From positions 16,710 to 80,709 of the forward strand of contig JAUYBL010000007.1 in the NCBI GenBank assembly GCA_030693065.1: a stretch of DNA of 64,000 bases, read 5' to 3'. Origin of the DNA: Methylococcaceae bacterium. Its GTDB lineage: Bacteria; Pseudomonadota; Gammaproteobacteria; Methylococcales; Methylomonadaceae. The position numbers and the translations under genes were made by a program. Positions within the stretch are counted from its first letter, which is position 1. Each line of letters begins with the position of its first letter. Positions 1,620-61,849 of this stretch are shown piece after piece. The notes beneath the pieces were generated by a model, which was not told where the DNA came from, made no database searches, and saw only the letters and a program-made list of their open reading frames with translations.

Positions 1620-3392
1620 ATGGATATAGATCTCAAGATTCCAAACAAAGTAAAGCTGGTTCACGAGGCCTTGTTGCTTAGGCATACGGTTGAATTCCAA
1701 ATAGACCGGCCGGTACAAGCTTGGCAATGGATGAATCAAACACGCTCAGTACCTGATCAACAAGAATGGGTGCGACCTGAAGTAACAGATGCTTGGTTAC
1801 GATGCCTTGAAGATTATTGTTTGCCCTTGGGTAATTACGCCAATTGGGACAATTATCCCGTTATTGAGGCTGCGGTTGATCATCCCAAACCCGTCAACAA
1901 TATTGAAGAACTGATTAAACAGCTTAGCCACAACTTTCATGTTTTTTTGAAAGAAGCTGGGGTGATGATGGTGCTGACGACTCCGGAAGGCAGATTATTG
2001 TATGTCGCGGGCGAACAGCAGTTCCCAGGATCTTTTATGACTCGAATGCATGTTCAAGGCGCAAATTGGTGTGAGTCAATTCTCGGTAATAACGGCATAG
2101 GCAGTACCGCATTTCTGAAAAAACCGGTCGCATTTCAAGGTATGGAGCATTTTTTAAGTGTACTGCATCCTTTTACTACTGTCGGTTACCCATTACTTGA
2201 TGATGCCGGTGAGTTGATGGCGATTATTGGTTTAGTCAGTGATCATCAAGAAAGCATGAATTCGTTGTTTGCTTTTTTGCATTTGATTTGTGTCTTGGTC
2301 AATACTAATTTGCCGTTAGCGCAAAACACTGCCGCCCAAGAGCGGGTGTTGGAACAAATCCACTTTAATCCCGCCAAGAAAATACAACCTCAACTCAGTA
2401 ATTCTGCTATTTCTGTTGAATTAGACGCGCTCATCAACAAAGCCGTTAAGCTGCAGACGCATAAAATCCCCATTTTAATTACTGGCGAATCAGGTGTGGG
2501 TAAAGACCATTTTGTTGGCTTATTAAAAAATGCCGGCCCCAGAAAAGATGCGCCTTTGATTGCTATTAACTGCGCCTCCATACCTCATGATTTAATTGAA
2601 AGTGAGTTGTTTGGTTATGAATCCGGCAGTTTTACTGGCGCCCGAGCTAACGGTAAGCCAGGCAAATTCATGCTTGCTGACACAGGTATCTTGTTTCTTG
2701 ATGAAATCGGCGATATGAGTTTCGATTTACAATCAACGCTATTACGCGTGCTGGAAACCTCTGAATTTACGCCGGTAGGGGGAAGCAAACCGATTCTGGT
2801 TAATGTACAGGTAGTTGCTGCGACGAATGTGCAATTGCTGGAAGCAGTGGAAGCCGGCCGCTTTCGTCGCGATCTTTACTACCGTTTAAATGGCGCACAA
2901 ATTCATCTTTTACCTCTTCGCGAACGGCCGGATAAAAAAACAATTATTCAGCATATTCTGCAAAGGGAATTAAATGCTATTGCGCCTAATGGTGAGATTG
3001 AAATTTGTCCTGAAGTGCTGTGTTTAATCGCACAACATCCCTGGCCTGGTAACATTCGTCAATTGATTAATGTCATCAGGGCGACCCTTTATACCGCCAG
3101 CAGTCAGCTCATTACCGTTAAAGACCTGCCCGTTGATTTCGTCGCGGAACTCAAACAATTTGGCTCTCCCGATGCCCCGGCAATTAACTCAGCGCTGCAT
3201 CCCCCACTAATTGATAATTCGCCGGTAATGAGCTTAACAGCCTGGGAGTTGCATGGCATCAAAACCGCCTTAAAAGACTGCGAAGGCAATATTTCCATGG
3301 CAGCAAAGAAATTAGGTATAACCCGGACCACACTTTATAAAAAAATGGATCGTTTTGGTCTTAACAGGGAAGGTGATGGTTTATTTGCCTGA
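1620..3392 (+). CDS. Sigma-54-dependent transcriptional activator (bacterial enhancer-binding protein) with an N-terminal sensory (GAF-like) domain, an AAA+ core and a C-terminal HTH.
   Basis: Walker A GESGVGKD, the GAFTGA-type motif ESELFGYESGSFTGA, Walker B/arginine-finger region FLDEIGDM..RVLE, and a C-terminal Fis-type HTH (ISMAAKKLGITRTTLYKKM). Confidence 0.85.
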   Translation: MDIDLKIPNKVKLVHEALLLRHTVEFQIDRPVQAWQWMNQTRSVPDQQEWVRPEVTDAWLRCLEDYCLPLGNYANWDNYPVIEAAVDHPKPVNNIEELIKQLSHNFHVFLKEAGVMMVLTTPEGRLLYVAGEQQFPGSFMTRMHVQGANWCESILGNNGIGSTAFLKKPVAFQGMEHFLSVLHPFTTVGYPLLDDAGELMAIIGLVSDHQESMNSLFAFLHLICVLVNTNLPLAQNTAAQERVLEQIHFNPAKKIQPQLSNSAISVELDALINKAVKLQTHKIPILITGESGVGKDHFVGLLKNAGPRKDAPLIAINCASIPHDLIESELFGYESGSFTGARANGKPGKFMLADTGILFLDEIGDMSFDLQSTLLRVLETSEFTPVGGSKPILVNVQVVAATNVQLLEAVEAGRFRRDLYYRLNGAQIHLLPLRERPDKKTIIQHILQRELNAIAPNGEIEICPEVLCLIAQHPWPGNIRQLINVIRATLYTASSQLITVKDLPVDFVAELKQFGSPDAPAINSALHPPLIDNSPVMSLTAWELHGIKTALKDCEGNISMAAKKLGITRTTLYKKMDRFGLNREGDGLFA

Positions 3393-6214: not shown

Positions 6215-7219
6215 GAACGCCTTTTATGTTGAATTTGTTGACACCAGGGCGACGACGAGCCTAGACCGCTAATAAAGCAGGTTCTTAAAAATAGCCGCTT
6301 GTGGACGATTCCCACTCCACTGCTATGGCTTTGTAAGTATAAATGACCATTTAAATTCAATTTGTGTAGCCTCATAGGGTTAATCGAACGTTAAAGTACT
6401 TGTCCGATTAAGCACATTTTATCCTATCGTCATTTAAAATTCGTGCTCGCTGATCAACATTCTGGTGAGGACGTGGTTTAGCGGAACAATTTAAAAATAA
6501 TCCACAGTTGGTGTTTCTGTCGCTAGAAGGTGTGTTGGTACTTGAATGATCGGCGCCCTTCCCTTGGTAACGCAACCATATGGAGAATCCGCGACCCGAG
6601 AGCACTTCGTCAAACTTGGCCCGGACGGAACGCTGGTAACAATACGAGGCGGGTCAATGACTCCACGACGAAGGATCGCCATTTTTCAAAGGATTCACCG
6701 CGTAATGCTGGCGTCTAATTCGAAGTTCATCCATTAGACATTTTCGGCTAAGGCGGGCTTACATTGCGGCCTTAGGGTTTGCAACTTGTCATCAATATTT
6801 TGGCAACCTTTAGATTTAACGTTATCACTAAGAGCCCTGCATCTTGCAAAGCGTCAAACCTAAGCTAAACGCCGTAGTCGCTTCTCAGAAAAATTCGGTT
6901 CGCCAATAAGTTAAGCCATTTAATTTAACTCATCTCGGTTTAAATCCGCCCTTCAGGCATTAGTGCCAATACTCCGTGTGAGCTAAAAATTTTTATTAGC
7001 GATTCTAAACTTATACTAGAAATGATCTAAAAATTAGCTTAGCATATGTAAAAATGTGATGCGCATCACATTATACATCTTTCCAAGTTAGTAATTTGTC
7101 TTGACAATGTGGTTTTTACCTTTTCTGTGTTAGCTATTTTTCGATCAAAAATTGAAAGCCGCAGACCCCGAAACCTGTCTAGTTCAAATCGTTATAAAAC
7201 ATTTAAACTCAATTTTTTG

Positions 7220-8317
7220 ATGAAAAAAATCCTTTGTGTAGTAGGTACGCGTCCGGAAGCCATTAAAATGGCGCCGGTGATTTTAGCGCTAAAAAAAGAA
7301 CCGTGGGCAAATGTAAGAGTACTGGCAACCGCCCAGCACCGCCACATGCTCGATCAGGTATTGAATTTCTTCAATATTACTCCTGACATCGACCTGAATA
7401 TCATGCGTCCCAATCAGGCACTCACCACTTTAACTGCTCGTTTATTGTTAGAAATGGACGACGTATTGTTGAGCGAAAAGCCTGATGTCGTGCTAGTGCA
7501 GGGTGATACCACCACAGTTATGTCCGTCGCACTGGCATGTTTTTATCATCGTATCGCTGTGGGTCATGTCGAGGCCGGCTTACGCACATGGGACATCAAT
7601 AACCCGTTTCCAGAAGAAGCCAATCGAGTCATTGCCGGGCGTTTGGCGCGTTGGCATTTTGCTCCTACCGAAAGCTCCAGACAAAATTTACTGCGCGAAG
7701 GTATTTCGGATCAAGACATATCCGTGACCGGCAATACCGTGATCGATGCATTGCTGATGACGGCTGCCAATGATTTGGAGTTACCTATTGAATTGGACCC
7801 AGCCAAACGTCTGGTATTAATTACCTCACATCGCCGTGAAAATTTTGGCGAGCCGTTCCGGAATATCTGCTTGGCTCTACGGACATTGTCCGAACGCAAT
7901 CCGGAGGTGCAGTTTTTGTACCCGGTTCATCCCAATCCCAACGTCAAAGATGTTGCCTATGAATTGTTGGCCGACAGACCGAATATTATTTTATGCGAAC
8001 CGCTGGATTACGCACCGTTTGTCGCTGCATTGAAACGCGCCTATCTGATTATTAGTGACTCAGGTGGCGTGCAGGAAGAAGCCCCAGCTTTGGGCAAGCC
8101 TGTGTTGGTACTGCGAGATGAAACCGAGCGTCCAGAAGCGGTAGACCAAGGCGTCGTTAAATTAGTTGGCGCCGATTATGATCGTATCGTTAGCGAAGCC
8201 CAGCGATTGTTAGATGACGAAAACGCATACCGGGCCATGGCTCAGGGGATCTCCCCCTACGGTGACGGTCATGGCGCGGAGAGAATAGCCAAAATACTTA
8301 GGGACTATTTTTCCTAA
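7220..8317 (+). CDS. wecB: UDP-N-acetylglucosamine 2-epimerase (non-hydrolysing, WecB/MnaA type).
   Basis: MKKILCVVGTRPEAIKMAPVI N-terminus, ..HVEAGLRT.., ..SDSGGVQEEAP.. Start taken at the internal ATG (7220) with canonical N-terminus; the ORF-track start (7109) adds a non-homologous leader. Confidence 0.85.
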   Translation: MKKILCVVGTRPEAIKMAPVILALKKEPWANVRVLATAQHRHMLDQVLNFFNITPDIDLNIMRPNQALTTLTARLLLEMDDVLLSEKPDVVLVQGDTTTVMSVALACFYHRIAVGHVEAGLRTWDINNPFPEEANRVIAGRLARWHFAPTESSRQNLLREGISDQDISVTGNTVIDALLMTAANDLELPIELDPAKRLVLITSHRRENFGEPFRNICLALRTLSERNPEVQFLYPVHPNPNVKDVAYELLADRPNIILCEPLDYAPFVAALKRAYLIISDSGGVQEEAPALGKPVLVLRDETERPEAVDQGVVKLVGADYDRIVSEAQRLLDDENAYRAMAQGISPYGDGHGAERIAKILRDYFS

Positions 8318-8416
8318 CGTCAAACTGCCCGACAGTCACGCTGTAGTCATAAAACCCTGACATTATTTGGAAATCATTCGCTAAGGCCCGTGCCGAGCTA
8401 GCTTTACAAATATACG

Positions 8417-10015
8417 ATGTTGATTGCAGCCCTGAATACCATTTCCAATCACTCTTTAAATCTAAACAAAAATAAACATTTTTATATGTCTGCTTCGATA
8501 TACAAATTAGTAGCGTTGCCATTGTCAAAATTCCACAGATGGGCCTTTCTTGCGGTATTTTCCGCTGTTGCCTTATATACGCACTTTGGCAGTCGAAGCC
8601 TGGAGGCATTTAGCTCAGTCTTGCCGATTAATCTGCCAGCCATCGTTGGGGACTTGGCACTCGGCGAACGTATTTTTGGCATATTCGGATATTTCGCATC
8701 CATACTGCCGCATGCCTTACCGGAGCTTCAGTTCAGCGTCTCTTGGCTCGTCAATATTTTTATATCGCTATTTCTACTGATCCTGCTGCTGTTATTTTTC
8801 TATACCGTTCGTCATTATCATTTCACGCTGAATCGTTTATTCGGTCATCAGCGCCATCCTTATATCGATATCGATTCGGCTGACTGGCCGAAGATCACTA
8901 TTTTTATCGCGGCCCATAATGAGGAAGCGGTCATCGCAGGTTGTCTCGAAGCCTTACTGGAGGTGGATTATCCAGCCGATAAAATCCTGCTGATGCCTCT
9001 TAATGATCGCTCAACCGACCGGACACGAGAAATCATCGACGAATTTGTTAGTCAATATCCCGGCAGGATTCAGCCTTTTCACCGAACCAGCGGCAAACCC
9101 GGCAAGGCCGCAGCGCTTAAAGATGCCACCGAATTGGTCGACACTGACATTATTATCGTCTTTGACGCAGACTATGTGCCAGCCAAAGGGCTAATCAAGC
9201 ATCTCGTGGCGCCGTTTTTTGATCCTGAAGTCGGCGCTGTGATGGGACGCGTCGTGCCTCAAAACGTCAGCTCCAGCTTGCTCACCCGTTTGCTTGATTT
9301 AGAACGTTCCGCCGGTTATCAGGTGGACCAGCAGGCGCGGATGAATATGGGCTTAGTACCCCAGTACGGCGGAACAGTGGGTGGTATTCGTCTTCGAGCC
9401 TTAGAGAGTTCTGGCGGCTGGCATGACGATGTGTTGGCGGAAGACACCGACCTGACCATTCGATTTTTGCTCAACAATTGGAAAACAGTGTATCAAAACC
9501 GGGCCGAATGTTACGAGGAAGTGCCCGAAGAATGGCCGGCCAGGGTTAAGCAGATAAAACGCTGGGCAAAAGGACACAACCAAGCGTTATATCGGCATTT
9601 TCGCAAAATCTTGTTTATGTCCGGACTCAAGCCTCAAGAAAAACTTGATGCCATGGCGCTACTCGGCGTTTATGCCATGTCGCCTCTGCTGATTTTCGGC
9701 TGGGTAATTGGCATCGTGCTTTATTATTGCAATCTCAGCCCGATACCCGATTTAGCGCTGAGTTTGTTCGCAATGTCGGCGTTTAGCGTGTTGGGGAATT
9801 TTGCGGCTTTCTTTGAAATCGCCGCGGCGGTTTACTTGGATGGAAGCCAGCAGCGTATTCGGCTCTTGCCCTTCACCGTGATCGGTTTTTTGATCAGCAT
9901 GACGTCGATTTCCATGGCCACTCTGGAGATGATGGCCGATTCAGTCCGCTTGAATCCCCGCGAATTGAAATGGGATAAAACTCCACGTTACCGCAAAGTT
10001 GAGGTGGATGCCTAA
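8417..10015 (+). CDS. Integral-membrane processive family-2 glycosyltransferase (cellulose/chitin/PNAG-synthase-like beta-glycan synthase).
   Basis: N-terminal TM helices, a GT-A core with ITIFIAAHNEE, DxD (IVFDADY), AEDTDL and the processive-synthase Q-x-x-R-W motif (QIKRWAKG), and several C-terminal TM helices. The start is uncertain (8417 or the internal Met at 8486). Confidence 0.75.
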   Translation: MLIAALNTISNHSLNLNKNKHFYMSASIYKLVALPLSKFHRWAFLAVFSAVALYTHFGSRSLEAFSSVLPINLPAIVGDLALGERIFGIFGYFASILPHALPELQFSVSWLVNIFISLFLLILLLLFFYTVRHYHFTLNRLFGHQRHPYIDIDSADWPKITIFIAAHNEEAVIAGCLEALLEVDYPADKILLMPLNDRSTDRTREIIDEFVSQYPGRIQPFHRTSGKPGKAAALKDATELVDTDIIIVFDADYVPAKGLIKHLVAPFFDPEVGAVMGRVVPQNVSSSLLTRLLDLERSAGYQVDQQARMNMGLVPQYGGTVGGIRLRALESSGGWHDDVLAEDTDLTIRFLLNNWKTVYQNRAECYEEVPEEWPARVKQIKRWAKGHNQALYRHFRKILFMSGLKPQEKLDAMALLGVYAMSPLLIFGWVIGIVLYYCNLSPIPDLALSLFAMSAFSVLGNFAAFFEIAAAVYLDGSQQRIRLLPFTVIGFLISMTSISMATLEMMADSVRLNPRELKWDKTPRYRKVEVDA

Positions 10016-10017
10016 TC

Positions 10018-11118
10018 ATGTGGACTTCACTGCTTTTTGCCAGTGCGGCAGGCATGTTTCTAATGCCACTAATACCGGCCTTGCTTGAGCTAAGGCTCAA
10101 GCGCGATATCGAACCGGTGGCGGTAGATCAGGCCAACGCCGGCAACATCGATTATTTCGCGGAAAGTTTCCAAACCTTCATCACCGATGCGATTGATGAC
10201 TATCAATCGGGAAAGACCGATCGTCTAGTGCCGCAAAATTATTCTCTTTATGAGCTCGACAGTCATTTTCAGCCGACGGAGATCGAAGCAAAGCAAGCAA
10301 TCGCCGATAGACTCATAGTCGGTTTTGGTGAGTTGTTTTTGCCTGCGGGTTTTAATTTCAATCAGGAAATATTCGGCAAAAGGAACGTTAACAGCGGCGA
10401 AAACTGCCGCTTGCGCTCTGTTTTGGCACTGGAGAAACTGGTGCTGGGCAAAAATACCCAGCTTTTACGCTGGGCGCACGCCCGTAACATTTTCGCCGCC
10501 AGCGGCTGCGTATTACTGGGTAGAGTGTCTGCAGAAGCCGAGTTTCGCCTGCAACCCTATTGCCAATTTGCCCGTATCAATGCCAATCCGATTTTTGTGG
10601 ATAGCGGCAATGATGTGGATGTTTTGTGTCAGGCATCTAAGCAGTCAAAAACACCTGTCGTAGCGCTTCAATACTTTGTCGATTCCGCCGGACGAGTGAT
10701 GCTGAACAACAACCTGGATTTCCCGGAACACGGAAGTTGGCAGGGCGATATGGTGATTAAGGGCGATGCGTTGATACGCAGAGGCGCTTATATCTCCGGC
10801 AGTTTGAAAGTGTACGGTAATGTTCTGATTGAGCCGGGCGTTGAGATTCTGGGCGCTATTATCAGCAATAAAACGCTAACAATTGCCAGCGATTGCTTGC
10901 TCAACGGCCCGCTGGTCGCTGAGCAAGTCATTGAGATCGATAGCCGCTGCCGTATCGGCAGGTCTGGGGTGCCGAGCACCGTCACTGCGCCGATCATTCG
11001 AATCGCATCTGGAACCCGTGTGTATGGCAGTCTTTGGGCCAGAGAACGCGGCGAAATCGTAGACTCTCTTTCTAACGGCCAACGCGCCGCCCACACTAAC
11101 TCTAAACATCTGAGTTAG
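10018..11118 (+). CDS. Membrane-anchored bactofilin-domain (DUF583, beta-helix) protein, a putative accessory subunit of the GT2 synthase.
   Basis: Starts 2 nt after the synthase stop. An N-terminal hydrophobic helix (MWTSLLFASAAGMFLMPLIPALLEL), then a C-terminal ~110-aa region with the bactofilin-like repeat pattern (IKGDALIRRGAYISGSLKVYGNVLIEPGVEILGAIISNKTLTIASDCLLNGPLVAEQVIEIDSRCRIGRSG). Confidence 0.55.
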   Translation: MWTSLLFASAAGMFLMPLIPALLELRLKRDIEPVAVDQANAGNIDYFAESFQTFITDAIDDYQSGKTDRLVPQNYSLYELDSHFQPTEIEAKQAIADRLIVGFGELFLPAGFNFNQEIFGKRNVNSGENCRLRSVLALEKLVLGKNTQLLRWAHARNIFAASGCVLLGRVSAEAEFRLQPYCQFARINANPIFVDSGNDVDVLCQASKQSKTPVVALQYFVDSAGRVMLNNNLDFPEHGSWQGDMVIKGDALIRRGAYISGSLKVYGNVLIEPGVEILGAIISNKTLTIASDCLLNGPLVAEQVIEIDSRCRIGRSGVPSTVTAPIIRIASGTRVYGSLWARERGEIVDSLSNGQRAAHTNSKHLS

Positions 11119-11122
11119 TCCG

Positions 11123-13051
11123 ATGCAATTTATTAACCCTACCCAAATCATGAGTGATAGTTCTTTCGAGCCAAGCTCGTCGACGCCTGATACAGTCCGT
11201 CCTTCAACAGGTCGAACTGTATTTAAAGGCCGGGTTAATCGTTTGCTGATGGTATTGCTAATCTGCTTTAATCCGACGAACTCCGAGGCCGAACCCTTAA
11301 AGTTGGACGGCTATCAGCAGCTGGATGGCGCTATCACTATTTTTCACAATGGCGATAACGTCGACCCTTATTTTGCCGGTAAAGCCTTGTTGGCAGCGCT
11401 GGACGCGGGCATGGATATAAGAGCCGTAGCCTACTCATGGATAGCCTGGGGCTTGCAACATCAGCGCCAGGATGGTGGTTTCGATAGATTTTGCCGCAAA
11501 AATGGCAATTGGAGCGCTTGCGCAGCTGCGGATGCTGATGACTCGGCCACCGCGGTATGGATTGAGTTGTTGGTCAAACTAGCTCCAGACGCCGGGATGC
11601 CGCCGATCTGGTTGGAGAGCCTTAAGCGCGCGCACCAATTACTGGAAAGCCTGAAAGATCAGAATAGTCGTGTTTACTTCATCTCAGCCAAGCAACCGGT
11701 TGGGTTATTGATGGACAATGTCGAAGTCTATACAGCGTTATCGGCATTGAGTCATTTTAAGGAAAAAACCGGCGAACCCGTGCAGGCCAAGCTATTAGCA
11801 GCCCAAGCAGATGCGTTGGCGAGCGATATTGTCCAAGTGTTTTGGCAGCCTTGCAGCAGCAGCTTCAGGGTCTCAACCCAAATGCTCACCCAGCCCGGTT
11901 TTTATCCCGATAAGGTCGCGGAAATTTTTCCGATTTTGGCGCAAATGCCGGTTCCCGGTCGCGATCACGTCGCGTTTTTTCGGCAATGGTTAAGCGTTAA
12001 TCGCGGGACTTGGTTCCGTCAGGCCAGTATCGATTTTCCGTGGGGATTGGTAGCGATTGCGGCTAGCCAGCTCAAGGAATACGAAAGTGTAAATTGCTGG
12101 CTGGCGTTAGCTGCACCATTGCGCCACGGTAGTCATTGGAATGTGCTTGAGGAGGCAGCGTACGAGTCCCTTTACAGCAATAATCCTCATCCAGCATCGT
12201 GTCAGGTGACAGACCCGCAAAAAAAATCGTCATTTTCTCTGGCAACTCCAGAGAATCTGCGGGCGGTTAAGTCGAATCAGCAGGCTCTGGAATTGCAATG
12301 GAATCCGGTTGCCAGTTCCAATCATGCAGTAGCCTACGAAATTTATCGCGATGGCAAATTTATTGCCACGAGTCGAGTTCCGTTTTATGTCGACAATGCC
12401 GTTGTAAGCTCCACTCGCTATAGCTATAGCGTCACAGCCTACGATGATTTTGGGCATATTTCCGATACTTCCCAAGCAGTTAGCTTAAACACCGTCGCAG
12501 GCCAATTTGCTACCGTGTATCTGGAGACCAAATCCAATCGAGTCAAAATCCACTTGCCGAACCAAGCGGGCGAAAACGATTTGCTGATGGAATCCGCTTG
12601 CCCGCATTTTCTGAAAAAAACGCTTAGTTTGGGTGATGCAACCCAGATTTCGGTGGCCTTTGCCGATGACAACGGGCTAATCGACGATAACCAGGGAAAA
12701 AATTACTTGCTGACCGCTGGTTTAACCACTATCGGGCGAGGCACTGTCAATGTTGCAACCAATCCTTGTCTGGATCGAGAGGCTCCGGGAACTCCGAGTA
12801 ATTTGAAACAAGTTAGTGTAGATCGGCATTCGGTCAACATTGCTTGGACTGCAGCGAACGACAATCAAGCAGTGACGAGTTATTTGGTGCTGCGTAACGG
12901 CGCCGAAATTGGTGAAACCACGCAAACTCAATTTTCTGATAACTGTGTAGCGCCCAAGGCAACCCAACAGTATCAGGTGCGCGCGTTGGATTCCTCTGGC
13001 AATCAATCGGCCGAAAGCCTGCCATTGCTCGTGACCATTCCGAATGAGTAA
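11123..13051 (+). CDS. Secreted protein: N-terminal alpha-helical (probably (alpha/alpha)-barrel glycoside-hydrolase-like) domain plus two C-terminal fibronectin type III domains.
   Basis: A signal-like segment (LLMVLLICFNPTNSEA). Two FN3 units (PENLRAVKSNQQALELQWNPVAS..YEIYRDGKF..YSYSVTAYDDFG; PGTPSNLKQVSVDRHSVNIAWTAAND..YLVLRNGAEIG..YQVRALDSSGN). The exact start is uncertain. Confidence 0.55.
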   Translation: MQFINPTQIMSDSSFEPSSSTPDTVRPSTGRTVFKGRVNRLLMVLLICFNPTNSEAEPLKLDGYQQLDGAITIFHNGDNVDPYFAGKALLAALDAGMDIRAVAYSWIAWGLQHQRQDGGFDRFCRKNGNWSACAAADADDSATAVWIELLVKLAPDAGMPPIWLESLKRAHQLLESLKDQNSRVYFISAKQPVGLLMDNVEVYTALSALSHFKEKTGEPVQAKLLAAQADALASDIVQVFWQPCSSSFRVSTQMLTQPGFYPDKVAEIFPILAQMPVPGRDHVAFFRQWLSVNRGTWFRQASIDFPWGLVAIAASQLKEYESVNCWLALAAPLRHGSHWNVLEEAAYESLYSNNPHPASCQVTDPQKKSSFSLATPENLRAVKSNQQALELQWNPVASSNHAVAYEIYRDGKFIATSRVPFYVDNAVVSSTRYSYSVTAYDDFGHISDTSQAVSLNTVAGQFATVYLETKSNRVKIHLPNQAGENDLLMESACPHFLKKTLSLGDATQISVAFADDNGLIDDNQGKNYLLTAGLTTIGRGTVNVATNPCLDREAPGTPSNLKQVSVDRHSVNIAWTAANDNQAVTSYLVLRNGAEIGETTQTQFSDNCVAPKATQQYQVRALDSSGNQSAESLPLLVTIPNE

Positions 13052-13230
13052 ACAGGCCAGGAGCTGTGTAAATCCGACTCGATTACCTGCTTGTCCAATT
13101 TTTGCAGCAAGCGCCGCAAGTAGGCATAAATAACAGACAACATGACATAAGTGTCAGGCTTAATGACATCGCTGGTTGTCAGCGCCGTTTAATTTTTTTT
13201 AAGTATCTGTATTTAATAGAGTTATATCGT

Positions 13231-13246
13231 TGGCACTCAACTTGCT
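13231..13246 (+). promoter_or_regulatory. Sigma-54 (RpoN) promoter, -24/-12 elements.
   Basis: TGGCACtcaacTTGCT is a perfect match to the TGGCAC-N5-TTGCW consensus with correct GG-N10-GC spacing. It lies 40 nt upstream of the small ORF at 13286 and about 270 nt upstream of the CE4-like gene. Confidence 0.6.
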
Positions 13247-13285
13247 TTAACATCTTTTGATTACTGTTTTATTAATGGAAGTATC

Positions 13286-13510
13286 GTGACCCCTTCAAAG
13301 AAAAAATTGAAATTGTTCAGATCTGCACTCGCACAGATCCTATATGTAAATAATGCTCAAGCTTCAAATTTTCCAGGTGGTTTTACCGACTTTCAAAATG
13401 ACGTAAATGGCGTTGAATATTCTGTTCAAGCTAAGAATTGGCTTCCAAGTGGCGCCGCCAGTGGTGCTGATGCTGGCTTGCGAAATTCCTTACTCGAACC
13501 ATTGAGATAA
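13286..13510 (+). CDS. Possible small secreted protein (74 aa, GTG start) translationally coupled to the downstream CE4-like gene.
   Basis: N-terminus KKKLKLFRSALAQILYVNNAQA resembles a signal peptide. The stop TAA abuts the ATG of the next gene (GAGATAATTATG). It lies directly downstream of the sigma-54 promoter. Confidence 0.3.
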   Translation: MTPSKKKLKLFRSALAQILYVNNAQASNFPGGFTDFQNDVNGVEYSVQAKNWLPSGAASGADAGLRNSLLEPLR

Positions 13511-13512
13511 TT

Positions 13513-15351
13513 ATGTTTTTAATTCGATGGATCATTTTATTAGCAATATTGACACTAACTGTGGTCAAAGGTTTCGACGGCATACCTGCTCTGAGCGATC
13601 TACGCCAAGAAAAACTGGCGCTAGCGCTGCTAGTTCCTGATGAAGCCAATCTTGATGATCCTAAATTGACCGCCTGGCTGGATGCCGCAAGTGAGCAGGG
13701 CGTCAAACTGGATGTGTTGACTGCCAGCCAATTTCTCCGGCCTTATCCATTCAGTCTGTCCAGATATGCCGGGGTAATTCTACCGGACTCGATTCATAAG
13801 ATGATGAGTGAGACCTTGATCGGCGGCGTGCATGATTATGTCAGTTCGGGCGGTAAGCTTATGTTGGTGTTTGATGCGGGCACTTTATTGCCTCCAAATC
13901 AAACCTATGCCCAAGGACAATCGCTGTTTTCCGATCTAGTCGGCGTCAATTACGCGATGTATGACACCTTAGGCGATAAAACCATTGCCATGTCCGAGGT
14001 GTTTGGTGAGCAAGTCGCGTTTATTTCGCTACACGTGCCACCGGGAAAGTTTTCTGCTTCCCAAAGCGGCAATCCGCAATTGATGAGCTTATCGGGTTAC
14101 CAAAACGACAGTGTTGAGTATTCGTATTTTGTTACAGACACACAGTTTTCCGGCAAAACCTTATTATCCGGGAAGGGCAATAAGGTGATTGCGAGTGTTA
14201 ATACTTTCGGCACCGGTCAGGTGTTATTTATTAATTTGCCGCTTGGCTATCTGAAAAATCGCACCGACGGTGTATTGCTAAATGGATTCATGCATTATTT
14301 TTCAGAAAATATCGTCAAGCTACCCACATTATCTTCAGTTCCCGACGGGCTTGGTGGATTGATTGTCAATTTACATATTGATTCAAACGCTAATTTGCCG
14401 GGCTTGATCGCCCTAAAAAAGAAATCCAAGTTTTTTAATTACGGACCTTATTCAGTGCATATCACCTCCGGCCCTGATGTAAATGTTGAAGGCGATGGCT
14501 TGGGGTTCAATCTCTCGAAAAACAAAGAGGCCGCGGAATGGGTGCGTTTTTTCCAAAAACGCGGTGACCAAATCGGTAGCCATGGCGGCTGGATACATAA
14601 TTATTTCGGTGAATTTGTCACCGACGCTAATCAAGATTTATTTACTCCGCTGCTGGAAAAAAATAAACAAGCGCTCGAGGCTATTCTCAATCACCCGGTA
14701 AACGAATACTCGGCCCCCATGGGGAATCATCCGGATTGGGTCACCAAGTGGTTGGATAATCAGAATATTGGCAGTTATTACTTTACCGGCGATATCGGTT
14801 CAGGTCCGACCAAATCTTATCGTGATGAAGCCAGACCGGCAGGCAAAGCCTGGGCATTCCCAGTTTTGACCATGGGTAAGCACGCCTCCTTCGAAGAAAT
14901 GCATGAAAGTCGGGTTGAAGAAAAAATTATCGACCAATGGCTAAATGCCGTATCAACGTTTACCGCTGACAATCGAGTTGCCAGACTTATATATTTTCAC
15001 CCTCCCGGTATTCTCGATTATCCAAGTGCTATCGATAACTGGCTGACAAATTCCGATCAACTTAATAAATCGGGCCGTTTTAATTGGTACACCATGTCTG
15101 ATATTGCCAAATTCTTAGATGAAAGAGAAAAAACGGCATGGAATATTAATCGTGTCGATAATGGCCAAGTAGTTTTGTCTGCCGAAAATATAAACTCCTT
15201 AGCGCATATGACTTGGTTATTACCAAAATCAGCTTATGAAAATCCGGAAATATTATCCGGAAATGTAAATATTTCTCAAGATGACAAATATTTAATTATT
15301 CGGGCTATCGATGGAAAAAGTTTAAAGGTTAATTTGCGAAGCAGCTTGTAA
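13513..15351 (+). CDS. Secreted or membrane-anchored two-domain protein with a C-terminal divergent CE4 (NodB-homology) polysaccharide-deacetylase-like domain.
   Basis: N-terminal signal/anchor. Candidate CE4 motifs: H-I-D (VNLHIDSN), H-x4-H as in PgaB (GSHGGWIH), an RxPYG-like EYSAPMGN, and a late YFHPPG. It is paralogous over its whole length to the C-terminal 760 aa of the 17334 gene. Confidence 0.5.
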   Translation: MFLIRWIILLAILTLTVVKGFDGIPALSDLRQEKLALALLVPDEANLDDPKLTAWLDAASEQGVKLDVLTASQFLRPYPFSLSRYAGVILPDSIHKMMSETLIGGVHDYVSSGGKLMLVFDAGTLLPPNQTYAQGQSLFSDLVGVNYAMYDTLGDKTIAMSEVFGEQVAFISLHVPPGKFSASQSGNPQLMSLSGYQNDSVEYSYFVTDTQFSGKTLLSGKGNKVIASVNTFGTGQVLFINLPLGYLKNRTDGVLLNGFMHYFSENIVKLPTLSSVPDGLGGLIVNLHIDSNANLPGLIALKKKSKFFNYGPYSVHITSGPDVNVEGDGLGFNLSKNKEAAEWVRFFQKRGDQIGSHGGWIHNYFGEFVTDANQDLFTPLLEKNKQALEAILNHPVNEYSAPMGNHPDWVTKWLDNQNIGSYYFTGDIGSGPTKSYRDEARPAGKAWAFPVLTMGKHASFEEMHESRVEEKIIDQWLNAVSTFTADNRVARLIYFHPPGILDYPSAIDNWLTNSDQLNKSGRFNWYTMSDIAKFLDEREKTAWNINRVDNGQVVLSAENINSLAHMTWLLPKSAYENPEILSGNVNISQDDKYLIIRAIDGKSLKVNLRSSL

Positions 15352-15497
15352 AGCTTATCAAGTAAATTGGCATTCAATTACAAAATAACATTACTAATAA
15401 CCGATGAGCATAAATAAATTATTCGCGATCGGTTTTGGATATATTCAATATTTTTTTGTTACACCATTTATTTATGTTTTTATTATTTAGGAAGCGA

Positions 15498-16286
15498 ATG
15501 CGATACGGGATTCTCCTGCTCACGGCTTGTCAATTATGTACCCCATTGGCAGCCGCCGACGAACCTGCGCCTTTTCAAAAAAGCGGTTATGTGCAACTTG
15601 ATATTGGATATGCTGATTTGACAAATCATTTCCAAAACTGGTTTGACCAGTCTTTAAGGGGATATGCTCAGGTCACACCTAATGACGGAATCAATTGGGA
15701 AGTATCCCATCAGAGCCACTTTGCCGAACAGGGAGTGCTTGGCGCGCTAGGGTATCAACGCGTTTTTAATGACGAATGGTATGGCTCGATCAGTGCTTCG
15801 ACTAGTAGCGACGGGTCTTTTTTGCCGTTATACCGCACCGATGCGAATTTATACAAAAAGTGGTTGGATAGGCGAAATTTAGTGACTGGGGTCGGTTTTA
15901 CCTATAGCCAGAGCCGACTAAAAAATTATGATCGTATCGTTTCACTTGATCTTCTTTATTACTTCGACGCGCCATGGATACTCGAACTTGGGGGAAAGAT
16001 TGCTGAAAGTAATCCAGGGAGCGTGGCATCCCACCGAGGGTTTGCAGCGCTAACTTATGGTCAACATAAACATTATTATTTGACCGCGAAATTCGATTAT
16101 GGAACAGAGGGTTGGCAAGCAATCGGGGCAACACAAACAATTAGTAGTTTTGTTAGTCACGAAGCATCGCTCAATTTAAGAACATGGATTAGTAATGACT
16201 TCGGTTTTTCATTGACAACCAATCACTATTCAAATCCAAACTATAGCCGCACCGGAGTCATTGCCGGCATATTTGTCGATTTTTGA
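15498..16286 (+). CDS. Outer-membrane beta-barrel protein, YaiO-like.
   Basis: Signal peptide (MRYGILLLTACQLCTPLAAA), alternating amphipathic beta-strand pattern with Y/W/F girdles, and a C-terminal aromatic residue (..GIFVDF), the typical OMP terminus. Size (about 260 aa) and composition are consistent with the YaiO family. Confidence 0.45.
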   Translation: MRYGILLLTACQLCTPLAAADEPAPFQKSGYVQLDIGYADLTNHFQNWFDQSLRGYAQVTPNDGINWEVSHQSHFAEQGVLGALGYQRVFNDEWYGSISASTSSDGSFLPLYRTDANLYKKWLDRRNLVTGVGFTYSQSRLKNYDRIVSLDLLYYFDAPWILELGGKIAESNPGSVASHRGFAALTYGQHKHYYLTAKFDYGTEGWQAIGATQTISSFVSHEASLNLRTWISNDFGFSLTTNHYSNPNYSRTGVIAGIFVDF

Positions 16287-17089
16287 TCATGCCTGAGAAC
16301 GTTAAAAAACACTATAGGGATCTAACCGCGCTCAGCAAGCGGGGCGTACTTGGAGAGATTATTCCGGAACATCGGGCTTTATTTCGCTCCCATTTTTCCC
16401 GTCTAAATTGGCTGATTATCCTATTTCTGCCGATTCTATTTAATTATGTCGTTTTTGAATCAATGACCTTGATAAGTCAGATTTGGGCAACCTTGTTTGA
16501 GTTTTGGGTTGGGAAAATCGAGATACCGGGCAAGGTGCTGATGTTCGCTACAAACTTAGTAAACCGTGAACTTCTGTTACCTGAGTTATTTATCGTCACC
16601 TCGGCGCCGAGCGCTCAAGATTGGTGGCTATTAGCGCTAATAACCGTGGCTTTATTAGTGTTGATGTATTCCCTTCCAAAGTACTTAATGCCCTTGAGTT
16701 ATATCATTGGTTTTTTAGCGTTGATTATGTTGAGTTCGTTGATTTATTTCTCGATTATGCCGGCCAAGTTTTCTTATACGATTTCCGGCTATTTAAATAA
16801 TCTTACGGTTTCCGCTATTTGGTTGATGTTAGTAATTCCCTGGATTCATGCACTTATTTATTACATTTTCGATTTTTCTTTTTTTAAAAAGGGATTGTTA
16901 ACGACACTAACACTTGTTTTTATAATATTAGCTTTGCCTTTTCAGTTATTGGTTCAGGCGGTCATTCTTGTCAAATATTCAATTATTATGTTGCCGGTTT
17001 TAAATGTTTTTTTCGGATTATTTTTATTGATTCTCTGCTGTTTGTCTTTATATGGCTGGGCAATGAGTTGGGAGCGACATTCTCGATAG
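16283..17089 (+). CDS. Polytopic inner-membrane protein of unknown function (about 8 TM helices).
   Basis: Highly hydrophobic 268-aa ORF overlapping the stop of the OMP gene (ATGA). Confidence 0.45.
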   Translation: MIMPENVKKHYRDLTALSKRGVLGEIIPEHRALFRSHFSRLNWLIILFLPILFNYVVFESMTLISQIWATLFEFWVGKIEIPGKVLMFATNLVNRELLLPELFIVTSAPSAQDWWLLALITVALLVLMYSLPKYLMPLSYIIGFLALIMLSSLIYFSIMPAKFSYTISGYLNNLTVSAIWLMLVIPWIHALIYYIFDFSFFKKGLLTTLTLVFIILALPFQLLVQAVILVKYSIIMLPVLNVFFGLFLLILCCLSLYGWAMSWERHSR

Positions 17090-17333: not shown

Positions 17334-20258
17334 ATGAGTACATCACTCCCTTTTAAAAGGAATGCTTACGTGTCGGCTGTGAGCTCCTTGCTGATCTCAG
17401 GTCTCAGCGCGGTCGCAATGCCGCTTCAAGCCGCTGAACTGGTCGTCAATGGCAGTTTTGAACAACCGGCAATTCCCTATTTAAGCTGGAAACTAAGCTC
17501 CACGTTATCCGGCTGGAAGCTTGGTGCTGAAAGCAAGGGTAATAGATTCGAACTTCAAAACAATGTTGCAGGGGCTCCGCAAGCCAAGTTAGGCAACCAA
17601 TTCGCAGAATTGGATTCCAACGGTACCACATTGATTTATCAAGACATTCCGACTACGCCTGGAACTGTCTATCAGCTGCGGTTTCATTTTTCCGCTAGAC
17701 CGGGCGTTGTCGACAACCAGCTGCAGGTCAAATGGGGCGGTACCGTCGTTGGTAATATAAAAGCCAGCGGGTTTCTCAAATTCAATACGGTTTGGAAGGA
17801 TTACACTTACAGCGTGACTGCAACCGGTACCACTACCCGTCTGAGTTTCAGTAACCTTGGAGAAGTCAGCGATAGTTTCGGGGCTTATCTGGATGGCGTC
17901 AGCGTAGTTCCGGCCGACACTACTACTGCTCAAAATTCGACAAAGCTGGCCATTCTATTGCCTGACATCAATGCTGGCTCGACGCCGACCGATGCCTTGA
18001 GCACTCCGGCTGCACAGGCTTGGCTGGATGCAATTAAAGAAGAAGGCTTCAATGTGGAAGTCATTCGCGATAGCCAGTTTGCCTCGGTCGCCGGTAAATA
18101 CAAAGCTGTCATCTTGCCCGATGCGGTACACCAGATCGCTAGCGAACAGTTGTTGAGCGACATTTCCGCTTATGTTAAAGACCAAGGCGGTAACGTGCTG
18201 ATCGTTTACGATTTTGGCGCCCTGAACACTCAAGGCCTCTTCCCGACTTCGGGCCCGAATCCGTTCAGCAACCTAGTCGGCGTCGACTATAACCTGTACG
18301 GTGAGTTATACGGTCAAACCACTCTGTCTCCGGTCGGCTTGGGCCCAATTTACGGTATGGAAAGTACGCTGTGGAAGATGCAAGTACCGCCTGGTAAATA
18401 TATGACCTGGCCTACTGAGGGTTCAGCGACTTTCACCATGGCATCCACTAGCGAGATTGCCACTGCAACAGATCCGGAAAACACACCTACCGCCTATCTG
18501 AAAACCGATAGCAAGGATCCCGGTGGTGTGCGCAAATTCGATGCAGGCTATATTCATCGCATTCCATTCGGACACGAGAAAGGCATCACTCCGGATCAGA
18601 TTTTTGCTGCCCAATCTGAAAAGATTCCCCACAGCGCGTTGATCGGCAAAAGGCCAAACCGGCACAAACAGAACCCGGTTCCGTATTCTCCAGACGACAG
18701 CTTGCAAGGCGTATCTAGCTATTTGTATGGCTTTCTGACCTATCCGACCTACGTTACCTGTAACCTGGGCCATACCTCCAGTGCGAGCGATATAGCTAAC
18801 TTCGACAGCAATTGCACTACCACCGGAGAAAGTTATACCGGTAACCCATTGCTGGTATCTGACAGATTCGGTCTGGTGGCTGGTCACGCATCGCGCGGCA
18901 ACGGTAACGTAATGTTCGTCAATTTACCGTTGAGCCGTCTCAAAACTCAAACTGATGGTTTGTTGATGCATGGAGCAATCCGTTATTTTGGCGACGATTT
19001 ATCACAACTCCCAAGATTGGCTTCTGTGCCAAACGGGATTCCTGGTATGACAGTCAATGTGCATGTTGACTCCCAAGACGCCTTGGCACCAATCAACGAA
19101 ATGAAGGCTGCCGGTATTTGGGATAATGGTCCATTCTCGGTGCATTTCACCGGTGGTCCGGTCGTTGATTATCAAGAATGTCTAGCCGATAGCAACGGCT
19201 TGCCGATCCGCTCGTTGCCTGTCAACGGTCAACCGGCCACTTGCGCGAATTTGATCGCTAACCCGCTGGGTGATGTGGTTTATCAAAAAGACGTCAACGG
19301 TAACAAAATCGTTAAGTCAACTGCGGCAGTCGGTTTGAATATCCCCAATAATTCTGCGGCCAAAGCGGCTATTCAATATTTTGCCGCGAAAGGCCATCAG
19401 ATAGGTGCGCATGGCGGTTGGTTGCATGACTACTACGGCAATAACGCACATGACGATATTTACGACCTGTCGACAACTCCGTCAACCTTGGTCAATCCAT
19501 CCAATCAGGCTACTTACCAACCTTATTTAGAGTTGAACAAAACAACTGTCGATAAAGTTGTCGCTCGAAAAACCACCGAGTATTCGGCGCCAATGGGTAA
19601 CAACTCAAAATGGGCGGTCAACTGGTTAGAAAACAATGGGGTGTTGGGTGCTTATTTCTTGGGTGATACCGGCATGGGAGCGACAAGGCACTGGCGCGAA
19701 GGCGACCTGCTGAACCAATCAATCTGGATGTTCCCCGTCACCCCGCTGGGCTTGTACGCCACCTTTGAGGAGTTTACCGAATATGGCGTGGATACTGCTG
19801 ACGTCACCAATTGGCTAACCAAATTGGTTGATTTCGAAGTCGTTAACCGCACGAACCGCTTGGTGTATTTCCACCCGCCTGGAGCAGTAGACTACTTACC
19901 ATCGCTGCAATCGATGATTGATAGAGCCGATAGTTATGCAAACAGCAGTAACCACGACTTCAAATGGTACTCGATGACCGACATTGCCAAATTCATGACA
20001 AATCGGAAGCAGGTCAGCTGGTCAGTTACACCGCAAAGCGGCAAGTTATTGTTCCAGGCTTCTCATCCAAGCAGTCTGGTAGGTCAGACTTGGATTCTGC
20101 CCAAAGAGGAATACAATAAACCGACGGTGAATTCCACTTACAACTACTGGACGCTTTGGGGCTATAAACCCTCAGCAACAGTCTCGGAAGATGGTGAAGC
20201 TTGGTTGGTAACAGTGAATTCTGGTACCAGTATCAGTTTTACCGTATCTGCCAAGTAA
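17334..20258 (+). CDS. Large secreted protein with an N-terminal DUF642-like carbohydrate-binding-type beta-sandwich domain, a middle domain and a C-terminal CE4-like deacetylase-like domain paralogous to 13513..15351.
   Basis: Signal peptide (..AVAMPLQAA), the ELVVNGSFEQP..GW..G..FELQ..AELDS motif typical of DUF642-like domains, then regions collinear with the 612-aa paralog (VNVHVDSQ, AHGGWLHDYYG, EYSAPMGN, VYFHPPG). Confidence 0.55.
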   Translation: MSTSLPFKRNAYVSAVSSLLISGLSAVAMPLQAAELVVNGSFEQPAIPYLSWKLSSTLSGWKLGAESKGNRFELQNNVAGAPQAKLGNQFAELDSNGTTLIYQDIPTTPGTVYQLRFHFSARPGVVDNQLQVKWGGTVVGNIKASGFLKFNTVWKDYTYSVTATGTTTRLSFSNLGEVSDSFGAYLDGVSVVPADTTTAQNSTKLAILLPDINAGSTPTDALSTPAAQAWLDAIKEEGFNVEVIRDSQFASVAGKYKAVILPDAVHQIASEQLLSDISAYVKDQGGNVLIVYDFGALNTQGLFPTSGPNPFSNLVGVDYNLYGELYGQTTLSPVGLGPIYGMESTLWKMQVPPGKYMTWPTEGSATFTMASTSEIATATDPENTPTAYLKTDSKDPGGVRKFDAGYIHRIPFGHEKGITPDQIFAAQSEKIPHSALIGKRPNRHKQNPVPYSPDDSLQGVSSYLYGFLTYPTYVTCNLGHTSSASDIANFDSNCTTTGESYTGNPLLVSDRFGLVAGHASRGNGNVMFVNLPLSRLKTQTDGLLMHGAIRYFGDDLSQLPRLASVPNGIPGMTVNVHVDSQDALAPINEMKAAGIWDNGPFSVHFTGGPVVDYQECLADSNGLPIRSLPVNGQPATCANLIANPLGDVVYQKDVNGNKIVKSTAAVGLNIPNNSAAKAAIQYFAAKGHQIGAHGGWLHDYYGNNAHDDIYDLSTTPSTLVNPSNQATYQPYLELNKTTVDKVVARKTTEYSAPMGNNSKWAVNWLENNGVLGAYFLGDTGMGATRHWREGDLLNQSIWMFPVTPLGLYATFEEFTEYGVDTADVTNWLTKLVDFEVVNRTNRLVYFHPPGAVDYLPSLQSMIDRADSYANSSNHDFKWYSMTDIAKFMTNRKQVSWSVTPQSGKLLFQASHPSSLVGQTWILPKEEYNKPTVNSTYNYWTLWGYKPSATVSEDGEAWLVTVNSGTSISFTVSAK

Positions 20259-38988: not shown

Positions 38989-39239
38989 GCCCTTCGACGG
39001 AGCTCAGGATGACCGGTCATTTGTTGATTTCGTTTGTGGTCGACTGCACGGATGCAGGAGGTAGGACACCAACAGTAGGCGCTTTAGGCGACGCAGGAGC
39101 AGTTGCCGAGAGCCTGTCGAACCAAACGTAATAAATTAATTTATAAGGTACCGTTCGCACTGAGCTTGTCGAAGTGCAGAATGATATTCGAAAATGCCAA
39201 AGTACCAGATTCCTTACATGCAAGAACCCAAGGACCACG

Positions 39240-52228: not shown

Positions 52229-52972
52229 ATGATGGCAGCATCGAGAGAATTTGAATTTGTAGTACGGAAATGGAATGCCTGGGTTCCCGGCATGAAATAT
52301 CATCCGGATTGGCACGATTGGTTTAATAATCAAGACCCTATTGAGCCTGAACAAGCGCTCATATCCAGCAATGTACCCAAACCTCTACAACGCCGATTAA
52401 GTCCCTTAGCTAGAGCGGTTTTTAATGCTGCGGATGCCTGTATTGATAATGATGTTGCGATGCCTGTTGTGTTCAGCTCTGCGCATGGCGAAGTTAATAA
52501 GTCGTTAGAAATGCTTAAAGACATGCAACGCGGCGAGGATATTTCACCTACTGCATTCAGCTTATCAGTGCATAACGCTATTTCCGGCTTGTTTTCGATC
52601 GCCCATAGCAATCATCAAGAAATTACTGTGCTTGCACCCGGCCAAGACGGCATCGCGGCGGCGTTTATTGAAGCGCTTGGGTTATTGCAGGAAGGCCATG
52701 ATGACGTGCTGATCATTTTATATGACGAGCCCCTGTCCGAATTTTATCCATACTTACCTTTTGCCCTCACGGCCAAAACCAGCGGTGCCTTGGCATTAAA
52801 AATTTCTTGGGCAGGTGACGGCTTGCCATTGCAGTTATGTCGTTCATCCGAGCACCGTAATGATGGCGAACATGCCTTACAAATATTCTCCTTTTTAAAA
52901 TTTCTAGTAACGGATGATCAGTCTTTACAACTAGGTAACCATAGACACAGCTGGATATGGCAAAAAAAATAA
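52229..52972 (+). CDS. Beta-ketoacyl-synthase N-terminal-domain-like protein (Ketoacyl-synt_2 / chain-length-factor-like), first gene of an aryl-polyene-type cluster.
   Basis: ..ISPTAFSLSVHNAISGLFSIAH.. is the hallmark of the small KS-like proteins that open APE/xanthomonadin-type clusters. Confidence 0.5.
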   Translation: MMAASREFEFVVRKWNAWVPGMKYHPDWHDWFNNQDPIEPEQALISSNVPKPLQRRLSPLARAVFNAADACIDNDVAMPVVFSSAHGEVNKSLEMLKDMQRGEDISPTAFSLSVHNAISGLFSIAHSNHQEITVLAPGQDGIAAAFIEALGLLQEGHDDVLIILYDEPLSEFYPYLPFALTAKTSGALALKISWAGDGLPLQLCRSSEHRNDGEHALQIFSFLKFLVTDDQSLQLGNHRHSWIWQKK

Positions 52973-53739: not shown

Positions 53740-53977
53740 ATTAAAACAACTCATCATCGACGCACTGGATTTGGAAGACATCAGTATCGCCGATATAGAC
53801 AGTCAGGCGCCTTTGTTCAATGATGGATTAGGATTAGATTCGATAGATGCTCTGGAATTGGGCTTGGCTATTCGAAAAAAATACAACGTAAAGATTGATG
53901 CCGAAAAGGAAGATGTTGTGAAAATCTTCTCCTCGGTAGCCACATTGGCTGCATACATTCAAGCTGAGCGCAGTTGA
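53729..53977 (+). CDS. Acyl carrier protein.
   Basis: 82 aa with the phosphopantetheine attachment motif LGLDSIDALEL. Confidence 0.7.
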   Translation: MENELKQLIIDALDLEDISIADIDSQAPLFNDGLGLDSIDALELGLAIRKKYNVKIDAEKEDVVKIFSSVATLAAYIQAERS

Positions 53978-53985
53978 GATAAGCC

Positions 53986-54234: not shown

Positions 54235-54236
54235 AC

Positions 54237-61772: not shown

Positions 61773-61833
61773 CCTTACCATGCACTCTCCTCAAAAAACA
61801 AATAAGCCATTGAATAAAAACAATTTATTTTTA

Positions 61834-61849
61834 TGGCATTGCCTTTGCT
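61834..61849 (+). promoter_or_regulatory. Sigma-54 promoter (TGGCATtgcctTTGCT) upstream of the PEP-CTERM protein gene.
   Basis: Matches TGGCAC-N5-TTGCW with correct GG-N10-GC spacing, about 200 nt upstream of the ATG at 62052. Confidence 0.45.

Follow-up and report, generated by a model that had tools for sequence, protein, structure and literature searches.

How are the distal genes of a polysaccharide operon in a Methylobacter-like member of the Methylococcaceae transcribed, and does a small open reading frame (ORF) in front of them contribute to the machinery? The question is raised by a 461-nt intergenic region (13052-13512) in a 64,000-nt stretch of DNA from this organism, which we call the window, meaning the whole stretch that was analyzed. 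The region is flanked by a gene for a 642-aa protein (11123-13051) and a gene for a 612-aa protein (13513-15351). It holds a sigma-54 (RpoN) promoter motif, a palindrome upstream of this motif and a 74-codon ORF downstream of it. From comparison of the sequences we propose that a promoter resembling those of PEP-CTERM genes was captured by the operon and drives the distal polysaccharide genes via a PrsR-type activator, the ORF being a by-product. We assign this reading a probability of roughly 0.6. What we describe is one more promoter of a known class, with a promoter-capture history. The system as such is not new in kind, and current understanding is not overturned.

The predicted sigma-54 promoter and its upstream palindrome

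The motif TGGCACtcaacTTGCT (TGGCACTCAACTTGCT) on the plus strand at 13231-13246 is an exact RpoN -24/-12 consensus, as a first-pass annotation of this DNA had reported, with the GG at 13232-13233 and the GC at 13244-13245. On both strands of the 64-kb window TGGCAC-N5-TTGCW has this one exact match only. Shuffling gives 0.16 expected chance matches, with at least one match in 16 of 100 shuffled sequences. Taken by itself, the motif is suggestive and not decisive. It faces the downstream genes, and a consensus scan found no sigma-70-like site on the plus strand of the region. In three relatives (L001, L049 and L050) the -24/-12 elements are kept as TGGCAT-N5-TTGCT (TGGCATtcaacTTGCT). The sole change in the core motif is C to T, and it yields TGGCAT, the form found at PEP-CTERM gene promoters. 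There is no rpoN gene within the window; the sigma-54 activator gene at 1620-3392 suggests that the organism uses sigma-54.

The first-pass annotation had suggested a search for activator-binding inverted repeats upstream of the promoter, and this search was rewarded. The palindrome TGTCAGGCTTAATGACA at 13152-13168 lies in a conserved block (13141-13187) that also contains a TGACA half-site (13143-13147), a TGTCA half-site (13178-13182) and CGCTG-gttgt-CAGCG, a weak hairpin. The centre of the palindrome is about 97 bp upstream of the predicted transcription start, and its sequence is identical in L001, L049 and L050. This arrangement is reminiscent of classical NtrC-family promoters such as glnAp2, where the activator site is a palindrome some 100 bp before the -24/-12 element, with bendable DNA between the two. 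Unlike in those promoters, no IHF consensus was found in the 13169-13230 spacer within one mismatch.

A closer counterpart has been described for PEP-CTERM genes of proteobacteria (Haft et al. 2006; PMC1569441). These genes have a 17-nt motif 1 that ends in TTTACA and is sometimes repeated, then, after 62.8 +/- 10.6 nt, a sigma-54 motif, and after another 71 +/- 38 nt the start codon. PrsR, an NtrC-type response regulator, was proposed as the binding protein, and a few such sites precede non-PEP-CTERM genes (Haft et al. 2006). PrsK and PrsT are presumed to take part with PrsR in the regulation of these promoters. In Aquincola a PEP-CTERM gene (pepA) is RpoN-dependent by experiment, and its start was mapped (PMC9850573). 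The region studied here repeats the order of these promoters: a TGT...ACA 17-mer, a spacer of about 62 nt, a -24/-12 site, a short leader and a signal-like ORF start. The left half-site AAGTGTCAG is identical to that of motif 1, while the right half reads ATGACA in place of TTTACA. The gap of 62 nt between TGTCAGGCTTAATGACA and TGGCAC falls inside the published range, and so do the 39 nt between the sigma-54 motif and the start codon of the small ORF.

The same window holds a canonical example for comparison. In relaxed searches the only other good intergenic sigma-54 site was TGGCATtgcctTTGCT at 61834-61849, which is preceded by the motif-1 17-mers TGTCAGATTTTTTTACA and TGTCGGATTTCTTTACA, with a gap of 63 nt between the nearer copy (61754-61770) and the sigma-54 site. 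The gene behind it encodes a PEP-CTERM 'choice-of-anchor N' protein (62052-62870). The orthologous PEP-CTERM promoters of three other Methylococcales (L052-L054) also have two motif-1 copies, with gaps of 72-74 nt to the sigma-54 site. Because this canonical box exists at 61568-61849, a PrsR-type activator is presumably present in the genome. As a separate observation, a RAYT (REP-associated tyrosine transposase) gene at 59755-60291 adjoins the 1.3-kb non-coding stretch that contains the PEP-CTERM promoter.

The resemblance between the two promoters can be put in numbers. The pattern GTGTCRG-N8-ACA has exactly three matches in the window against 0.09 expected, all of them upstream of the two good intergenic sigma-54 sites, and the composite pattern of motif 1 and sigma-54 site has two matches against none in 100 shuffles. 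Since the composite pattern was drawn partly from the 13152 site itself, a separate test that was not fitted to it was run. Within five mismatches of either reference motif-1 copy lie 14 of 127,964 positions, the 13152 site among them, and the chance of such a match within +/- 1 nt of the reference spacing is roughly 3 x 10^-4. In the approximately 600 kb searched, only three independent promoters combine a sigma-54 site with TGT-N11-ACA at most 100 nt upstream, and their gaps are all 62-63 nt.

A promoter of this type is found at the same kind of cluster in a distant relative. In L048 the composite promoter (154-247) consists of TGTCAGCATATTTTACA, 62 nt and TGGCATatataTTGCT, and it precedes a gene for a 783-aa protein (458-2809). 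This protein is a 63% orthologue of the product of the window's 974-aa gene, and its gene is the first in the orthologous polysaccharide cluster. Thus, two lineages have tied the polysaccharide cluster to this promoter type by different routes. Elsewhere in the window, the surroundings of wecB, of the 974-aa gene and of the activator gene yielded neither a sigma-54 site nor motif 1, but just a TGGCAT without the GC element at about 17275.

We rank the promoter at 13231-13246 above a chance match because its -24/-12 elements are kept in relatives, because 13141-13285 is conserved, and because an enhancer-like motif stands at the spacing seen in the window's own PEP-CTERM promoter. The -24/-12 arrangement, the intergenic and conserved position with orientation to the downstream gene and an activator-type site upstream, at about 80-150 bp from the start, are what characterizes a sigma-54 promoter, and on this comparative evidence the promoter is probably functional. 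The first-pass annotation considered the distal genes likely to be expressed from an enhancer-dependent promoter. A good sigma-54 promoter indeed faces them. The sequences show the elements with their spacing and conservation, the insertion, and an ORF without coding constraint; that the promoter is active, which activator it responds to and where the fragment came from is what we infer.

Several points weigh against a captured PEP-CTERM-like promoter. A position weight matrix was built from nine Methylococcales motif-1 sites (window, L048 and the orthologous PEP-CTERM promoters in L052-L054) and stands in for the published logo of Haft et al. 2006. The nine canonical sites all end in TTTACA and score 25-34 bits, whereas the 13152 site scores 8.1 bits, which is rank 6 of 127,958 positions. 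It is without the TTTACA end, which is diagnostic according to Haft et al., and it is a single copy, where the canonical promoters here carry two. The 39-nt distance from promoter to start codon suits the small ORF only; the 266 nt to the 612-aa gene exceed the 221-nt maximum of Haft et al. 2006. The type of gene differs as well, since the small ORF is decaying, has no PEP-CTERM domain and matches no Pfam or NCBIfam family, and the genes served are those of polysaccharide modification and export. None of the genes prsR, prsK, prsT, rpoN or for an exosortase was found in the window or up to 10 kb past its right-hand end. Searches with blastn and tblastn for a donor or second copy in the window and 49 loci (540 kb) returned orthologous sites only. 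Finally, the conservation is drawn from three closely related lineages (L001, L049 and L050), and shared ancestry may account for part of it. With these points included, we class the 13152 site as PEP-CTERM-box-like. PrsR is the most likely candidate for its activator, and we put the odds for PrsR at slightly better than even.

An insertion into an old operon spacer

Orthologous loci were retrieved by protein, and the spacers between the 642-aa- and 612-aa-type genes were compared. In four relatives this spacer is short: 108 nt in L045 (85% identity of the 612-aa protein), 114 nt in the Methylomonas locus L046 (also L002; 68%), 107 nt in L047 (62%) and 131 nt in L048 (55%). These short spacers contain no promoter and no ORF. 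The spacer of L001, whose 612-aa protein is 92% identical, measures 590 nt. In the alignment TAAACAG of L045 runs straight into GTGATTAAA, and L001 has about 480 extra bases between these points. The window shares this insertion minus 119 nt, a deletion that covers the 3' end of the insert and the first approximately 30 nt of the old spacer. Since all four outgroups have the short form, parsimony places the insertion in the ancestor that the window and L001 share. As judged from these alignments, the insertion is confined to this Methylobacter subclade and is recent.

The inserted DNA has not diverged evenly. Between window and L001 its 5' part is 71% identical, which is near the synonymous divergence of the flanking genes (about 0.3). 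The enhancer block 13141-13187 is 96% identical, the spacer behind it 88%, the -24/-12 site 94%, the leader 95%, the ORF part 87% and the old spacer 83%. Overall, the regulatory module 13141-13285 reaches 93%, compared to 71% for the adjacent 5' insert DNA. Such a pattern is known from promoter capture by insertion of a gene fragment, where a promoter and a 5' coding stub come to lie inside an operon and the stub is neutral while the regulatory part is conserved. In contrast to that model, the searches made here turned up neither a donor locus nor a second copy of the insertion, and neither a target-site duplication nor terminal repeats.

The 74-codon ORF itself was correctly located by the first-pass annotation. 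It starts 39 nt after the sigma-54 motif, is preceded by a Shine-Dalgarno-like GGAAG (13277-13281), and its TAA (13508-13510) ends 2 nt before the ATG at 13513. The signal-peptide-like N-terminus that had been claimed for it holds only in part. By eye, the charged KKKLK, the segment LFRSALAQILYV and an AQA are present, yet an Arg interrupts the hydrophobic core, and the N-terminus is only loosely signal-peptide-like. The allele of L001 has, by eye, a better hydrophobic core and no AXA site. Three alleles with differing C-termini exist: 74 aa in the window, 112 aa in L001 and 61 aa in L049 and L050. As 119 cannot be divided by three, the deletion puts the last 24 codons of the window's ORF, which are old spacer DNA, in another frame than in L001; in L049 and L050 a 1-nt deletion shortens the ORF to 61 codons. 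In the shared first 52 codons, window and L001 differ by 17 non-synonymous and 3 synonymous changes (codon positions 9:8:3), a ratio of non-synonymous to synonymous rates (dN/dS) of 1.66. For the flanking genes the same comparison gives 0.14 and 0.12.

A word-indexed search of 5.8 billion proteins returned the ORF itself only, and a full HMMER scan of 1.84 billion representatives gave, besides the 61-aa allele (P0122), nothing but a spurious fn3-repeat protein. L045-L048, relatives that keep the operon, lack the ORF. Non-coding frames of the window often contain ORFs of 60-110 codons, and L045, which is without the insertion, also has two open frames in the old spacer. We read the ORF as a chimera because its alleles differ in frame, its dN/dS is 1.66, homologues are missing and ORFs of this length are common by chance. 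Most likely, judging from the alleles, it joins a captured 5' stub of a secreted-protein gene to read-through of the spacer and is a non-functional remnant. Given the three alleles, the dN/dS and the lack of homologues outside the clade, the idea of a co-secreted subunit is not supported, and the alternative that the first-pass annotation had offered, an artefact, comes closer to the truth on the same evidence. If this reading is right, annotators should be cautious with the 74-aa "hypothetical protein" in the deposited records of these genomes, as there is probably no gene for it.

The old spacer contains a further small frame. A mini-ORF of 21-22 codons (MDFQ..LILACE.., ending YSNH) stops 7 nt before the ATG of the 612-aa gene in L045 (328-393), L001 (7925-7993), L049 and L050. 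At the corresponding position of the window (13440-13505) its ATG is changed to ATT, and the versions of L045 and L001 differ by a 3-nt in-frame indel. Either a genuine leader peptide is encoded here, or the DNA is conserved merely for ribosome binding. Candidates for RNA elements in the leader were rejected: an Rfam search of 12900-13700 (E up to 10) for a riboswitch or small RNA gave two chance-level matches only, and the 274-nt leader folds no better than its shuffles (z = -0.23).

Based on the alignments, the following course of events can be proposed. In a single subclade of Methylobacter, an old spacer of about 108 nt would have taken up some 480 nt of inserted DNA, of which 380 nt remain in the window after the later 119-nt deletion. 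The insertion would have been laid out like the promoter of a PEP-CTERM gene, with an enhancer site, a 62-nt AT-rich spacer, a sigma-54 promoter, a 39-nt leader with ribosome-binding site and the start of a secreted-protein gene. A phosphorylated PrsR-type activator of the NtrC family may bind to the palindrome, which lies about 100 bp before the predicted transcription start, loop across the AT-rich spacer and use ATP to open the sigma-54 holoenzyme complex. Transcription would then begin near 13257 and run through a leader of about 256 nt into the genes for the deacetylase-like protein, the YaiO barrel and the 268-aa protein (13513-17089). In this way a synthase-type polysaccharide operon would gain an additional promoter inside it, for its modification and export half, and this promoter would be switched on and off along with the PEP-CTERM surface proteins. 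The small ORF would be the by-product, with 50 codons of a decaying captured 5' end and 24 codons of old spacer that are open by chance.

If this is true, a non-PEP-CTERM target would be added to the predicted PrsR regulon in methanotrophs, and a wecB/GT2/deacetylase/YaiO system would be linked to the exosortase world. The locus would also be a clean and datable case of an operon that gains an internal enhancer-dependent promoter by insertion, with the L045 type as a natural "minus" allele. A more far-reaching version is less likely than not: a promoter cassette copied from a PEP-CTERM gene, with enhancer, sigma-54 site and 5' coding stub, may have been inserted and have brought the genes for modification and export under PrsK/PrsR control, L048 may have done likewise by another route, and co-production of the N-acetyl-sugar polymer and exosortase-sorted PEP-CTERM proteins may have been selected repeatedly. 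That version would hint at the polymer as a matrix, or even an attachment target, for PEP-CTERM proteins.

Candidate activators and rival explanations

The first-pass annotation named the protein encoded at 1620-3392 as a sigma-54 activator with an N-terminal sensory domain. The activator part stands, since sigma-54 interaction, lid and Fis-type helix-turn-helix domains are present. The presumed sensory domain has no family assignment: with E values up to 5 allowed, Pfam still gave no match for the first approximately 267 residues (1620-2420). A model in which this protein drives the promoter and the polysaccharide machinery includes the 74-aa product as a secreted or co-secreted subunit can point to the presence of the activator gene in the window, with its unassigned N-terminal region of about 260 aa, and to an ORF with a plausible ribosome-binding site, a loosely signal-like N-terminus and a stop that abuts the next start. 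The protein, however, has no receiver domain and scores 231 bits against PrsR, where the cut-off is 502.6 bits. Its gene lies 10 kb from the promoter, and the genes in between, which encode a RIO kinase, a molybdopterin-binding oxidoreductase and a ferric-reductase-like membrane protein, are unrelated; in Methylomonas it is not beside the cluster. No copy of the palindrome and no sigma-54 site was found near it, and the site at 13152 resembles a PEP-CTERM box instead. The link between this activator and the promoter is unsupported, the small ORF shows the three alleles and frames, the dN/dS and the lack of homologues described above, and relatives with the whole operon do without it. We consider this model very unlikely.

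The remaining alternatives concern the insertion itself. It might be an inactive scar, that is, a dead fragment with an unused promoter, and the distal genes might be read through from a promoter upstream of wecB. Ancestrally the operon was tight, its spacer measuring about 110 nt; the enhancer site has a poor matrix score and no second copy, and the captured coding part is clearly decaying, all of which would suit a scar. A scar does not explain why the regulatory part 13141-13285 is 93% identical when other insert DNA is at 71%, why the sole core change gives the TGGCAT that is used at real PEP-CTERM promoters, or why this cluster has acquired a promoter of the same type independently in the L048 lineage; we regard a scar as unlikely. 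Translational coupling, in which the ORF is translated as a leader of irrelevant sequence that aids ribosome loading on the 612-aa gene, draws on the ribosome-binding site and GTG that are 100% conserved across the alleles and on an open frame, or chain of frames, that ends 2-7 nt before the ATG in each of them. Yet frames of this length are as frequent by chance as noted above, the spacer has two open frames in L045 too, where the insertion is missing, and the first ORF in L049 and L050 ends 160 nt early, which leaves coupling improbable. The conserved block 13141-13200 might, lastly, serve mainly to end upstream transcripts and not as an enhancer, and a consensus scan does report a hairpin at 13170-13184 with a T-rich tail. 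Its stem has just 5-6 pairs, folding of 13130-13205 is no better than shuffled (z = -0.4), and the conserved block reaches 30 nt upstream of the hairpin, across the palindrome. A terminator, which would be compatible with a captured promoter, has therefore little in its favor as the main function.

The polysaccharide locus and other features of the window

The captured promoter would act on a locus whose parts are listed in Table 1. Like the Pga (PgaABCD) and Nfr (NfrB/NfrA/WecB; PMC8669469) systems, it combines wecB, a PgaC-like GT2, a deacetylase-like protein and an outer-membrane barrel in one cluster. In contrast to these systems, the GT2 here has no match to an MshEN or cyclic di-GMP domain, the barrel is of the YaiO type without TPR matches, and there are additional 366-aa, 642-aa and 268-aa proteins; no equivalog cut-off is reached. 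By analogy, the region 7109-17089 suggests a synthase-dependent polymer with N-acetyl-mannosamine or N-acetyl-glucosamine. Conservation of the cluster extends beyond Methylococcales, as far as Acidobacteriota and Comamonadaceae.

The first gene behind the promoter had been called CE4-like. The Pfam CE4 family (PF01522) matches its 612-aa product with 19.4 bits, below the gathering cut-off of 23.1, and a sequence search of solved structures gave noise only. The predicted structure (pLDDT 91.5) has the GH42-middle-like domain at its N-terminus, and Foldseek matched the model to 3rxz (TM 0.61 on target), ArnD 8t0j (0.62) and the deacetylase domain of NDST1 (9f6z). The label is acceptable on the basis of this modeled fold. 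Residues His288, Asp290, His357 and His362 are invariant in 38 homologues. Genome-scan matches at 35-46% identity are mostly from Acidobacteriota, and a metagenome scan gave relatives at 35-46% only and no further close ones.

Table 1. Positions of the regulatory elements, the polysaccharide genes and the reference promoter in the window.
Feature	Position	Strand	Remarks
wecB	7109-8317		
PgaC-like GT2 synthase	8417-10015		131.7 bits vs 422.3 for the PgaC equivalog cut-off
366-aa protein	10018-11118		
642-aa CBM25/fn3 protein	11123-13051		
Insert-derived DNA	13056-13435	+	~380 nt here, ~480 nt in L001; absent from L045 and three more distant relatives
Conserved block	13141-13187	+	96% identity to L001 vs 71% for the insert DNA immediately upstream
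Enhancer-like site TGTCAGGCTTAATGACA	13152-13168	+	Perfect TGTCA-N7-TGACA palindrome
Enhancer-promoter spacer	13169-13230	+	62 nt, AT-rich, T8 tract 13193-13200; presumed bending/looping region
Predicted sigma-54 promoter TGGCACtcaacTTGCT	13231-13246	+	Exact consensus; transcription start predicted at ~13257
74-codon ORF	13286-13510	+	GTG start; codons 1-50 from insertion, codons 51-74 from old spacer
Ancestral spacer remainder	13436-13512	+	Common to L045; holds the ribosome-binding region of the 612-aa gene
612-aa membrane-anchored protein	13513-15351	+	GH42-middle-like domain, NodB/CE4-like deacetylase fold, C-terminal beta-sandwich; first gene after promoter
YaiO-family outer-membrane beta-barrel	15435-16286	+	TIGR04390, 150 bits
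268-aa protein	16283-17089	+	No known family; always last gene of the block in relatives
974-aa paralogue of the 612-aa protein	17334-20258		DUF642/choice-of-anchor-C domain and full deacetylase-like paralogue
Reference PEP-CTERM promoter	61568-61849	+	Motif-1 copies 61568-61584 and 61754-61770; sigma-54 site 61834-61849

Two other regions of the window may be mentioned. A gene at 39174-41984 encodes a protein similar to type III restriction-modification endonucleases (239 bits, below the equivalog cut-off). The region 52229-59654 encodes a ketoacyl-synthase-like protein, an acyltransferase, two acyl carrier proteins, an AMP-ligase, a GT2, an LpxL-like acyltransferase and an aromatic ammonia-lyase, and this cluster looks like an aryl-polyene or flexirubin-type lipid pathway.

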